Assembly (NCBI GenBank): GCA_000146465.1 | Contig: CP001944.1 | Direction: 5' to 3' (one strand) | Length of the DNA stretch: 64,000 nt | In this document: positions 32,670-33,739 of the stretch, piece by piece | Layout: each line of letters starts with the position of its first letter | Numbering within the stretch: position 1 is the first letter of the stretch | The notes under the pieces: generated by a model | Told to the model about the DNA's origin: nothing | The model's input: the letters and a program-made list of their open reading frames with translations, nothing else | Databases searched by the model: none | Translations under genes and position numbers: made by a program

Positions 32670-33047
32670 ATGCGAAAAAATGACTTTGACGTGAGGGAGA
32701 TGAACGCAGCATTGGGTCTCCTTAGGCTAGCTAGAGAGGGAAAGGGCGAAGCAGATGAGCCTGATACAAGGACAAGAAAGACCACTTTCCAGATGATGGT
32801 TCTTAAAGAGGTATTCAAGATTGCACCGCATCCGTCGACGCTTACGAAGACAGACCTTGCACTTATGATCAAGCTTCCGCTGAAAGCTGTACAGATATGG
32901 TTTCAAAACGAGCGAAGCAGGAAAGAGAGAGGAGGGAGGACGGGGAAGAGAAGCAGGGGAGGAAGATCAGAAAACATAGATCCGGTGAAGTTGTTCAAGG
33001 TTATAATGAAGGTTCTGGAAAAGAACAGAGAGGGTTTTGGCTTCTAG
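32670..33047 (+). CDS. small homeodomain protein (typical 60-aa homeobox, 125 aa total)
   Basis: Homeodomain 'RKTTFQMMVLKEVFKIAPHPSTLTKTDLALMIKLPLKAVQIWFQNERSRKER', with WFQN in helix 3. Paralogous to the convergent gene at 33416-33739. Confidence 0.85.
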   Translation: MRKNDFDVREMNAALGLLRLAREGKGEADEPDTRTRKTTFQMMVLKEVFKIAPHPSTLTKTDLALMIKLPLKAVQIWFQNERSRKERGGRTGKRSRGGRSENIDPVKLFKVIMKVLEKNREGFGF

Positions 33048-33415
33048 TTCTGGAGAGACATTGCATTATATATTGGTGTAACATAGACAGAGCATGTTGG
33101 TCTTTGTGTGAGATGTTTCCAATTGAGAACATAAATTAAAACATGAGTTTTTCCGAGGGGATATTAAATATTAGCCAAGGCTTTATGGCTTTTCTATAGG
33201 ACGGCCCAAGGGAGGAGAGACAAAAAACTGGATATTAATTTTTACCCCTTCCCTATTTGGCCTTTGAACTTGAGTCTGTTTTTTACAACTGGAGAATAGG
33301 GTTATCAAAAAATATTAAGGAACATGCTCGATAATATTAAATTATAAATTTATTCAATAATAATATTGAGCTAGAATTTATTCAAGACTGTAAAAATTCT
33401 AAGACAAGTAAATTA

Positions 33416-33739
33416 TCAATACCTTGGTGTATTCTTAACAATGGACATAATCTCCCACAGGTCAATTGCCTTGGAGTCTGCATTCTCATCAATGCTTTGA
33501 TTCTTTCCTTTGCTGATATGTCTTTTGTTCTGGAACCATATATCCACTGCTCTTGGTGATAAGGATATTAAGATCCCGATATCAATCTTGTTCTCCCATG
33601 TTGGATATGGTGTTGCTTGATATATCTTCTTCAAAACCTCTTTCTGGAACTTGCTTTTCCTGACCTTTTCTCCTGGCTTCTTTAGGCATCTCTCCGGATG
33701 GAACAACAAAATCATTCCTAGGGCTGCCTGAACTTCCAT
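33416..33739 (-). CDS. small homeodomain protein, paralog of 32670-33047 (107 aa)
   Basis: Homeodomain 'RKSKFQKEVLKKIYQATPYPTWENKIDIGILISLSPRAVDIWFQNKRH'. The N-terminus 'MEVQAALGMILLF' parallels 'MNAALGLLRLA' of the partner. The first ATG is used (the track start is GTG). Confidence 0.85.
   Translation of the reverse strand: MEVQAALGMILLFHPERCLKKPGEKVRKSKFQKEVLKKIYQATPYPTWENKIDIGILISLSPRAVDIWFQNKRHISKGKNQSIDENADSKAIDLWEIMSIVKNTPRY

Follow-up and report, generated by a model that had tools for sequence, protein, structure and literature searches.

The window analysed here is a stretch of 64,000 nt from chromosome III of Encephalitozoon intestinalis, and it holds two facing homeodomain genes, arranged tail to tail, which we call A and B. 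These genes and a decayed neighbour lie at the following positions of the window.

32670 to 33047, plus strand: gene A, the HD-8 orthologue, an ORF of 125 aa (GenBank ADM11195.1)
33416 to 33739, minus strand: gene B, the HD-7 orthologue, an ORF of 107 aa counted from its ATG (GenBank ADM11196.1)
34086 to 35216, plus strand: Chk1-like kinase pseudogene (ECU03_0620 in E. cuniculi), located by tblastn, divergent from B and not part of the pair

Both ORFs lie exactly where the first-pass annotation of this DNA had placed them, and every peptide string quoted there was found. That annotation had described two small homeodomain genes, paralogous and convergent, and this description is borne out by the Pfam matches given below and by the alignment of A with B (31% identity over 103 residues, E 1e-17), which continues past the homeodomain on both its N- and C-terminal sides. 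For gene B, an alternative upstream GTG at 33757 would give a protein of 113 aa.

The two genes are already known and named. A and B are the orthologues of E. cuniculi HD-8 (ECU03_0600) and HD-7 (ECU03_0610), respectively. Gene A is an exact protein match to E. intestinalis ATCC 50506, with E. cuniculi HD-8 in the same 90% cluster, and gene B is an exact match to ADM11196.1, the E. cuniculi orthologue of which is named HD-7/ECU03_0610. High full-length identity and conserved synteny place them in the HD-8 and HD-7 orthologue groups: E. cuniculi HD-8 (Q8SW51) and HD-7 (Q8SW50) show 90% and 84% amino-acid identity to A and B. The E. cuniculi pair also has lengths of 125 and 107 aa and is convergent, as in E. 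intestinalis, with a spacer of 366 nt compared with 368 nt, and the flanking genes (UCH, Yip1, kinases and ribosomal S11) are common to both species in the same order. The sole material difference from the E. cuniculi locus is that the Chk1-like kinase beside HD-7 is dead in E. intestinalis. The names HD-8 and HD-7 are said to have been given in 2003 by Burglin, who reportedly described 12 homeobox genes in E. cuniculi. ECU03_0600/0610 were re-sequenced by Lee et al. 2010 (PMC2866331), and both genes were deposited by those authors as 'homeodomain protein class 2'.

Homeodomain class and flanking helices

Within the two proteins, the following elements were defined from sequence alignments and AlphaFold models.

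32757 to 32936, plus strand: homeodomain of A, residues 30-89 (60 residues; R5, Q50, N51)
33500 to 33679, minus strand: homeodomain of B, residues 21-80 (60 residues; Q50, N51)
32697 to 32729, plus strand: N-terminal motif of A, residues 10-20 (EMNAALGLLRL), with an AlphaFold helix at 8-24
32967 to 33020, plus strand: C-terminal motif of A, about residues 100-117 (SENIDPVKLFKVIMKVLE), with an AlphaFold helix at 105-122 (pLDDT about 87-89)
33704 to 33736, minus strand: N-terminal motif of B, residues 2-12 (EVQAALGMILL), from alignments, with an AlphaFold helix at 2-13
33437 to 33475, minus strand: C-terminal motif of B, residues 89-101 (SKAIDLWEIMSIV), from alignment, with an AlphaFold helix at 94-103 (pLDDT about 88-91)

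Both proteins belong to the homeodomain superfamily (PF00046). Against the Pfam Homeodomain model, which has a cut-off of 22.9 bits, A scored 50.1 bits (E 2.4e-13, residues 33-85) and B scored 41.2 bits (E 1.5e-10, residues 26-74), in each case with no indels. A and B are both typical (non-TALE) Q50 homeodomains, and there is no TALE partner. Neither falls in the TALE, or fungal HD1, class, as the scores against the TALE model PF05920 (Homeobox_KN) were 18.0 and 19.4 bits compared with a cut-off of 24, and no loop insertion was found. Read from the sequence, the distance from F20 to W48 in A is 28 residues, and thus A has no TALE insertion; the distance from Y20 to W48 in B is also 28 residues.

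The closest solved structures were the homeodomains of DUX4, aristaless and Hesx1 for A, and Ftz, Ubx and Antp for B, and all PDB relatives of the two proteins are typical homeodomains. Their three-helix cores were modelled by AlphaFold with a pLDDT above 90. In sequence and fold, the 60-residue core is closest to typical animal Q50 homeodomains (aristaless/ALX4, CRX, DUX4, Ftz/Antp), with about 28-36% identity and about 1-3 Å rmsd over 55-60 residues. However, these are not orthologous to the microsporidian proteins which, unlike them, have K8 and F11 in the homeodomain, and possess N- and C-terminal helices that are family-specific and without structural match. From Q50 and N51 we predict TAAT-type recognition, as for typical Q50 animal homeodomains.

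The first-pass annotation had also drawn attention to the likeness of the two proteins at their N- and C-termini, and alignments showed these to be real conserved motifs of a wider family. Across the aligned A and B orthologues, E10, L15, G16 and L20 of A are invariant, as are I103 and L108 of its C-terminal motif, in which S100 and D104 are nearly invariant. The predicted AlphaFold structures of A and B have a five-helix layout in common. Furthermore, an exhaustive HMMER search returned many single-homeodomain proteins of 100-190 aa that matched the near-full profile, and both motifs, present in A and in B, were found in about 45 aligned microsporidian members from several genera, Vairimorpha, Pancytospora and Enteropsectra among them. 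Each protein has a four-part layout, consisting of the N-terminal helix, a Q50 homeodomain, a short linker that is basic or of low complexity, and the C-terminal helix. Judged by these shared motifs, A and B are members of a microsporidia-wide family of minimal homeodomain proteins, which is motif-defined in this analysis and is not a curated family. The criterion used was an E-x-x-A-A-L-G-L-L-K-L helix that precedes the homeodomain by about 15-20 residues, together with a C-terminal [DN]-I-x(3,4)-L-x(2)-I-[IV] helix; the consensus of the N-terminal helix, which is amphipathic, is E-[IL]-[EQ]-A-[AL]-L-G-L-L-K-L.

In Vairimorpha necatrix there is one related gene, the product of which shows 39% identity to A and to B alike, and no second homeodomain gene adjoins it. 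B-like proteins (P0068 and P0069) occur outside Encephalitozoon, and the matches to a B-clade profile in a metagenome scan were distant homeodomains only (32-33% identity). As microsporidia encode few transcription factors, this mini-homeodomain family offers a tractable way into microsporidian gene regulation. In newer E. intestinalis annotations, HD-7 (gene B) is given a start at M9 and a length of 99 aa. This start cuts the conserved N-terminal motif, and it should be corrected.

Spacer and upstream region

Two intergenic regions of the locus were considered.

33048 to 33415, no strand assigned: A-B spacer between the two stop codons (368 nt, 31.5% GC)
32556 to 32669, plus strand: upstream region of A (Yip1-A intergenic region), a probable promoter, unusually conserved

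The spacer had been called AT-rich and long for this genome, and both statements hold within the window. Its GC content of 31.5% compares with 42.4% for the whole window and, on a crude ORF-based gene map of the window, it ranks first in length among the 11 convergent intergenic gaps, the others being between -4 and 115 nt except for one of 320 nt, with a median of 94 nt for all intergenic gaps. The spacer contains ATTAAA at 33135, 33163 and 33336, and TTTATT, which reads AATAAA on the minus strand, at 33349 and 33377. No other intergenic region of the locus is so poorly conserved: identity is 40-70% among the four named species and 26-32% against the relative L012, although conserved blocks lie about 75-95 nt downstream of the stop codon of A and about 30-110 nt downstream of that of B. 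The spacer probably consists of two 3' UTRs with polyadenylation-type signals, together with unconstrained sequence. This poor conservation, together with indels of lengths not divisible by three, led us to reject a conserved small ORF or element in the spacer. A hidden RNA gene was also rejected, since no Rfam family (E<=1) or tRNA was found in the spacer and its surroundings; a sub-threshold Rfam 'serC leader' match at 33789-33833 was taken as chance. The Yip1-A intergenic region shows 71-91% identity, gaps included, among five species, and it holds TAATATTTGTAATTG, with two TAAT cores.

Conservation, variation and expression

The synteny check in related microsporidia, proposed in the first-pass annotation, found the pair retained in eight Encephalitozoon-clade genomes or contigs: E. 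intestinalis, E. cuniculi, E. hellem, E. romaleae, L012, L004, L005 and the metagenomic relative L010. The orientation is convergent in seven of these and tandem in L010. In Ordospora, A is kept at the syntenic site and B is absent. As Ordospora is nested inside the pair-bearing group in the species tree, its single copy represents a loss of B. In that tree (three linked genes, NJ, distance-based rooting), in which bootstrap support served as a ranking only, the support for Encephalitozoon plus Ordospora was far above that for Encephalitozoon plus L004/L005. In the NJ gene tree, the A clade received 95% and the B clade 100% support, and the two clades are not sister groups: none of 300 bootstrap replicates recovered A+B as monophyletic. 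Identity is 58-92% among the orthologues of A and 72-88% among those of B, compared with only 31% between A and B. The linkage of A and B is older than the Encephalitozoon/Ordospora radiation and the split from the L010 lineage. It follows that the duplication is old, and that the genes became convergent secondarily or vary in orientation; the age of the duplication is bounded, not dated, as support for the deeper branching of the family tree is weak (short alignment, NJ only).

Allelic divergence between isolates had been named as a further test of a mating-type role. There was none among E. intestinalis assemblies, as a second assembly was identical to the window over 6300/6300 nt and at least 4-5 assemblies share the same A and B protein sequences; among E. 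cuniculi strains, one residue differs in each protein (99% identical), these comparisons covering a few laboratory isolates only. Both genes are under strong purifying selection, equally so, with a dN/dS of about 0.03-0.09 for A and for B, similar to that of neighbouring genes, and this analysis revealed no hypervariable N-terminus in either.

RNA-seq across life stages had likewise been suggested. In E. cuniculi, for which the data cover intracellular stages in cultured cells only, ECU03_0600 gave 67.6, 61.5 and 54.4 FPKM and ECU03_0610 gave 58.9, 61.2 and 53.5 FPKM at three time points (PMC3629993 Additional file 1). The HD-8 and HD-7 mRNAs are constitutive, flat and roughly equal across these time points. 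The near-identical mRNA levels, together with the long-lived linkage, would also fit a functional partnership of A and B.

Discussion

Taken together, these results make it likely that A and B are ordinary, old paralogous transcription factors of the microsporidia-wide minimal homeodomain family, and that they are not a mating-type (MAT) locus. Each protein would use helix 3 (Q50/N51) and the R5 arm to bind TAAT-type sites, and would act as an ordinary sequence-specific regulator in intracellular growth. The predicted flanking helices may form a surface for protein-protein contacts, whether with the homeodomain, on which they would pack, or with a recruited partner. An ancient local duplication would have given rise to the adjoining genes, and their adjacency would then reflect this duplication and an extremely stable gene order and not required adjacency, since the orientation differs in one relative and Ordospora deleted B and kept A.

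Other accounts of the pair have to be weighed against this one. A lineage-specific inverted duplication was the alternative put forward in the first-pass annotation. Taken as a recent event within the Encephalitozoon lineage, with one copy redundant or neofunctionalizing, it is very unlikely. A and B are indeed paralogous with similar flanks, Ordospora has A alone at the syntenic site, and the single V. necatrix gene is equidistant from both. However, A and B are far less similar to each other than the orthologues of each are among themselves, and they form separately conserved clades that are not sisters and were never recovered as monophyletic. Furthermore, the linked pair is present in L004, L005 and the more distant L010, the single copy in Ordospora is a loss within a pair-bearing group, B-like proteins are found outside Encephalitozoon, and the constraint on A and B is equally strong. 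It is also rather unlikely that HD-7 and HD-8 form a functional couple unrelated to mating type, heterodimerizing via their flanking helices and remaining adjacent for the sake of co-regulation. The near-identical FPKM values at the three time points, the long-lived linkage and the conserved N- and C-terminal helices, confidently predicted in both proteins, would be in keeping with such a couple. However, A alone suffices in Ordospora, the orientation of the pair is not conserved, and the same flanking motifs occur in unpaired family members, for example in Vairimorpha. The promoters are separate and lie at opposite ends of the pair, and there is thus no shared regulatory region. Linkage by itself says little, because synteny is generally extreme in the Encephalitozoon clade.

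The first-pass annotation had further proposed that the pair could be a homeodomain MAT-like locus, the products of which would heterodimerize after fusion of unlike cells and set off a sexual or diploid programme, as do basidiomycete HD1/HD2 or yeast a1/alpha2. If true, this would bear on the question of sex in Encephalitozoon. The reading is already largely refuted, and we regard it as highly improbable. Part of the proposal stands, in that the genes are paralogous, two linked homeodomain genes have been kept together in eight Encephalitozoon-clade genomes or contigs, and the locus has been examined as a candidate. The conserved extra helix predicted on each side of the homeodomain could mediate dimerization, and the yeast a1 protein is of a size comparable to A and B, which counts in its favour. 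The putative MAT locus of Burglin (2003) is reportedly a TALE plus typical pair situated elsewhere than HD-7/HD-8. Lee et al. 2010 (PMC2866331), citing Burglin 2003, examined ECU03_0600/0610 as one of three E. cuniculi homeodomain clusters that might be mating-type loci, the other two being ECU04_0970/1030 and ECU10_1470/1480; however, the same authors reported no idiomorphs at the cluster in E. cuniculi isolates. The remainder of the proposal also fails: both genes are of the typical class and do not show the pairing of HD1 (TALE) with HD2 (typical), and they are convergent, or tandem in L010, and not divergently transcribed from a shared upstream region. Divergent alleles are absent (6.3 kb identical in E. 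intestinalis, one residue different in E. cuniculi), the low dN/dS is accompanied by no hypervariable N-terminus, expression is flat in E. cuniculi, and Ordospora lacks B yet has A. It is just as improbable that HD-7/HD-8 are a fixed, self-compatible remnant of an ancestral homeodomain cell-identity switch, the heterodimer of which drives a cryptic life-cycle transition. Such a heterodimer would form via the flanking helices and might promote, for example, diplokaryon formation or sporogony; allelic divergence would be absent because both partners are present in every genome, as in homothallic fungi.

Comparison with known fungal systems shows where the likeness ends. Saccharomyces a1 and alpha2 are small homeodomain proteins, like A and B, but alpha2 belongs to the TALE class, and the two yeast genes occupy alternative idiomorphs, unlike A and B. 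The tail helix of alpha2 docks on a1 and, by analogy with this tail, the C-terminal helix of A and B may be an interaction element. In the search of solved structures, neither A nor B matched the a1 or alpha2 chains at E<=1e-3. In basidiomycete HD loci (Ustilago maydis bE/bW and the Coprinopsis A locus; HD1 plus HD2) there are two closely linked homeodomain genes, as here. However, these loci, as described in part in PMC2866331, combine a TALE gene (HD1) with a typical one (HD2) in divergent orientation, whereas A and B are both typical and convergent; their proteins have several hundred residues, compared with about 110-125 aa for A and B; and they are multi-allelic with hypervariable N-terminal dimerization regions, whereas A and B are invariant within species.

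Finally, the neighbourhood of the pair has itself been eroded. The Chk1-like kinase of E. intestinalis is a decayed pseudogene, and the gene has been repeatedly lost in relatives. In tblastn with the E. cuniculi kinase, the remains showed 44% identity, at least eight in-frame stops and no ATG, and their DNA is identical in the second assembly, where a 76-aa remnant is annotated; the intact orthologue has Chk1 as its best match. A tandem duplication of the kinases K1 and K2 arising with the homeodomain duplication was rejected, as the identity between K1 and K2 is only about 25%, and the single kinase of Ordospora, a K2 orthologue (69% identity), was also counted against it. In Ordospora, HD-7 was deleted together with the adjoining Chk1-like kinase, and this kinase is being lost independently in E. 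intestinalis, E. romaleae and one relative, although the frameshift seen in the E. romaleae gene may be an assembly error. The HD-7/HD-8 locus thereby presents a clean case of stepwise gene loss.

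Identity of the gene pair

Both genes lie exactly where the first-pass annotation had placed them, and every peptide string that it quoted was found:

32670-33047, + strand: gene A, ORF of 125 aa
33416-33739, - strand: gene B, ORF of 107 aa counted from its ATG

An exact-sequence look-up identified A as ADM11195.1 and B as ADM11196.1 of Encephalitozoon intestinalis ATCC 50506. ECU03_0600 of E. cuniculi, 'Homeobox protein HD-8' in UniProt, shares a 90% cluster with A, and B has its E. cuniculi orthologue in ECU03_0610, named 'Homeobox protein HD-7'. ECU03_0600/0610 form one of three homeodomain clusters put forward earlier as mating-type locus candidates (Lee et al., 2010, PMC2866331, citing Burglin, 2003), and both genes are labelled 'homeodomain protein class 2' in the GenBank entries of those authors. 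Given these identities and that report, the pair is already known, and finding it here is the re-discovery of a named and previously examined pair. Newer E. intestinalis annotations, among them UTX44863.1 (99 aa), begin B at M9, which affects 33715-33739 (-) and removes the conserved E-x-Q-A-A-L-G portion of the N-terminal motif; a start at 33739, giving 107 aa, fits the family alignment better.

Homeodomain class, paralogy and family

Each protein contains a typical homeodomain, as had been proposed. The Pfam Homeodomain model matched A (E 2.4e-13) and B (E 1.5e-10) well over its cut-off, and both fell under the threshold of the TALE model, Homeobox_KN. In each protein 28 residues separate homeodomain position 20 from W48, so the domain has the canonical 60 residues without the three-residue loop extension; Q50 and N51 are present in both, and R5 in A. 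By sequence, the solved-structure relatives of A (DUX4, Hesx1, aristaless, ALX4 and CRX) and of B (Ftz, Ubx and Antp) are all typical homeodomains, with no TALE protein or yeast a1 or alpha2 chain among the solved-structure matches of either at E<=1e-3. A Foldseek search with the model of A likewise matched typical homeodomain structures.

The suggestion that A and B are paralogues with related flanks was also borne out, as they align over 103 residues (31% identity, E 1e-17), extending into both homeodomain flanks. When an A+B profile was used for an exhaustive HMMER search, 6752 homeodomain proteins reached E<=1e-3. About 27 of the top 150 are small (100-195 aa) single-homeodomain proteins matching nearly the whole profile beyond the homeodomain, with named examples from Vairimorpha ceranae, V. 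apis, V. necatrix, Pancytospora philotis and Enteropsectra breve. Their alignment gives an N-terminal motif, E-[IL]-[EQ]-A-[AL]-L-G-L-L-K-L, followed by a linker of about 15 residues, a homeodomain typically carrying K8/F11/Q12, a variable basic linker, and a C-terminal motif, [DN]-I-x(3,4)-L-x(2)-I-[IV]. AlphaFold2 predicts a common five-helix layout, with helices at 8-24, 39-51, 57-66, 71-87 and 105-122 in A (pTM 0.68) and at 2-13, 30-42, 48-58, 62-79 and 94-103, along with a turn of four residues at 15-18, in B (pTM 0.74); in the C-terminal helices pLDDT is about 87-91.

In a neighbour-joining tree, the A clade, including orthologues from the relative's contig L010 and the family member P0026, received 89-95% support and the B clade 100%, and A+B monophyly appeared in 0 of 300 replicates. 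Because the deep nodes are weak, the duplication can only be bounded: it predates the split of the L010 lineage, and it may also predate that of the Vairimorpha lineage. The one related gene of V. necatrix sits at an unrelated locus, where no second homeodomain gene was found nearby, and shares 39% identity with A and B alike.

Synteny and history of the pair

The neighbourhood runs in the order RabGAP, Vac_ImportDeg, UCH, Yip1, A, B, K1 (a Chk1-like kinase), K2 (a second kinase), a small ORF, ribosomal S11 and a zf-UBP UCH.

Arrangement of A and B, A-B spacer length and state of K1 in E. intestinalis and its relatives (L numbers are contigs)
E. intestinalis: convergent; 368 nt; K1 (34086-35216, +) a dead pseudogene that lacks an ATG and has 8 or more in-frame stops
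E. cuniculi: convergent; 366 nt; K1 intact
E. hellem: convergent; 355 nt; K1 intact
E. romaleae: convergent; 344 nt; K1 split by a frameshift
L012: convergent; 265 nt; K1 absent
L004: convergent; 404 nt; K1 intact
L005: convergent; 781 nt; K1 intact
L010, 3420-5233 (JGI metagenome 3300073837): tandem, B then A on one strand; 1142 nt; K1 intact
Ordospora colligata (L001-L003): A without B; K1 absent

The pair is kept in the related Encephalitozoon genomes, L012, L004, L005 and L010; Ordospora has A alone. L010 is more distant, yet the UCH and kinases on its flanks are the same; its tandem genes, and the absence of Yip1 from between HD-8 and UCH, point to a local inversion or rearrangement in one lineage. 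In all three Ordospora assemblies A occupies the syntenic site, B and K1 are lacking, and tblastn found no remnants of either; HD-7 and the Chk1-like kinase were lost as a single adjacent block. In a distance tree built on 1482 ungapped columns from three concatenated neighbouring proteins, Ordospora lies beside Encephalitozoon, L004 and L005 fall outside both and L010 is most distant, so B and K1 were lost in Ordospora and not gained in the other lineages. At 6397-6660 of the Ordospora contigs, just 264-450 nt separate HD-8 from K2.

Spacer and flanking regions

The description of the A-B spacer as long and AT-rich holds: it has 31.5% GC against 42.4% in the window and, of 11 convergent gaps on a crude ORF-based map, none is longer. 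Searches for Rfam families (E<=1) and tRNAs in it found none. Its identity, 40-59% for most named species pairs and 70% in the closest, is the lowest of any intergenic region at the locus; the B/K1 upstream region is 58-71% identical between species. Only two blocks are conserved, TTCCAA..GAACATAAATTAAA, about 75-95 nt past the A stop and including ATTAAA, and an AT-rich block about 30-110 nt past the B stop with AATAAA on the B strand. We infer that the spacer comprises two putative 3' UTRs with end-processing signals and otherwise unconstrained sequence.

The 114 nt upstream of A (32556-32669) are 71-91% identical across five species, well over the locus's other intergenic regions, and include TAATATTTGTAATTG and TAAT cores; this conservation, with TAATATTTGTAATTG, may mark a conserved promoter or a site for homeodomain autoregulation. 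Upstream of B and K1, a sub-threshold match to the bacterial Rfam 'serC leader' (33789-33833, -; 21.2 bits where the gathering score is 35; E 0.14) is almost certainly due to chance.

Mating-type locus or ordinary paralogues

A fungal HD mating-type locus pairs an HD1 (TALE) with an HD2 (typical) gene, divergently transcribed and with hypervariable alleles, whose products form a heterodimer controlling sexual development. The first-pass annotation had raised this reading for A and B, and the cluster was indeed an earlier candidate. However, both homeodomains are typical, and transcription is convergent, or tandem in L010. Nor are the alleles hypervariable in the strains and assemblies compared: over the 6300 bases compared, the window and a second E. 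intestinalis assembly (GCA_051312795.1) show no difference, at least five E. intestinalis contigs carry an identical A and at least four an identical B, and E. cuniculi strains differ by one residue per protein. In E. cuniculi, expression (RNA-seq FPKM at three time points; Grisdale et al., PMC3629993) is moderate, flat and near-equal, at 67.6, 61.5 and 54.4 for ECU03_0600 and 58.9, 61.2 and 53.5 for ECU03_0610. This constitutive expression, together with the presence of A but not B in Ordospora, disfavours a sex-controlling A-B heterodimer, and on every testable criterion the evidence is against a mating-type locus.

The alternative, a lineage-specific inverted duplication, was right in that the paralogy is real; as stated it finds no support, since the paralogy is old, constraint is equal on both copies and the genes are not convergent everywhere. 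Between Encephalitozoon species, Nei-Gojobori dN/dS, with dS near saturation, is 0.03-0.05 for A (maximum 0.075, against L012) and 0.04-0.06 for B (maximum 0.094, against L012), equal to or below the values for Yip1, UCH and K2.

The best-supported reading is that A and B are conserved paralogues, both ordinary mini-homeodomain transcription factors. An ancient local duplication would have made them neighbours, and the extreme gene-order stability of the clade would explain why they are still adjacent. A and B might also work as partners through the flanking helices of the structural models. What value the locus retains is in the motifs shared across the family and in the repeated loss of the Chk1-like kinase next to the pair.

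Decay of the neighbouring kinase

K1, the orthologue of E. cuniculi ECU03_0620, is divergently transcribed from B and has Chk1 as its best match among solved structures (E ~1e-37). The second assembly, whose DNA is identical there and keeps a remnant ORF of 76 aa, confirms the decay of K1 in E. intestinalis. Taken across genomes, the pattern suggests that a checkpoint kinase has been lost repeatedly and independently; further K1-related coordinates are 7307-8621 in L013 and 4153-4945 in L012, and L002 also belongs here. Elsewhere in the window, long inter-ORF gaps of 600-1170 nt occur at 1131-1731, 3508-4674, 53547-54465 and 59625-60381 (crude map, ORFs >=100 aa), and these may hold additional pseudogenes, short genes or wrongly called starts.
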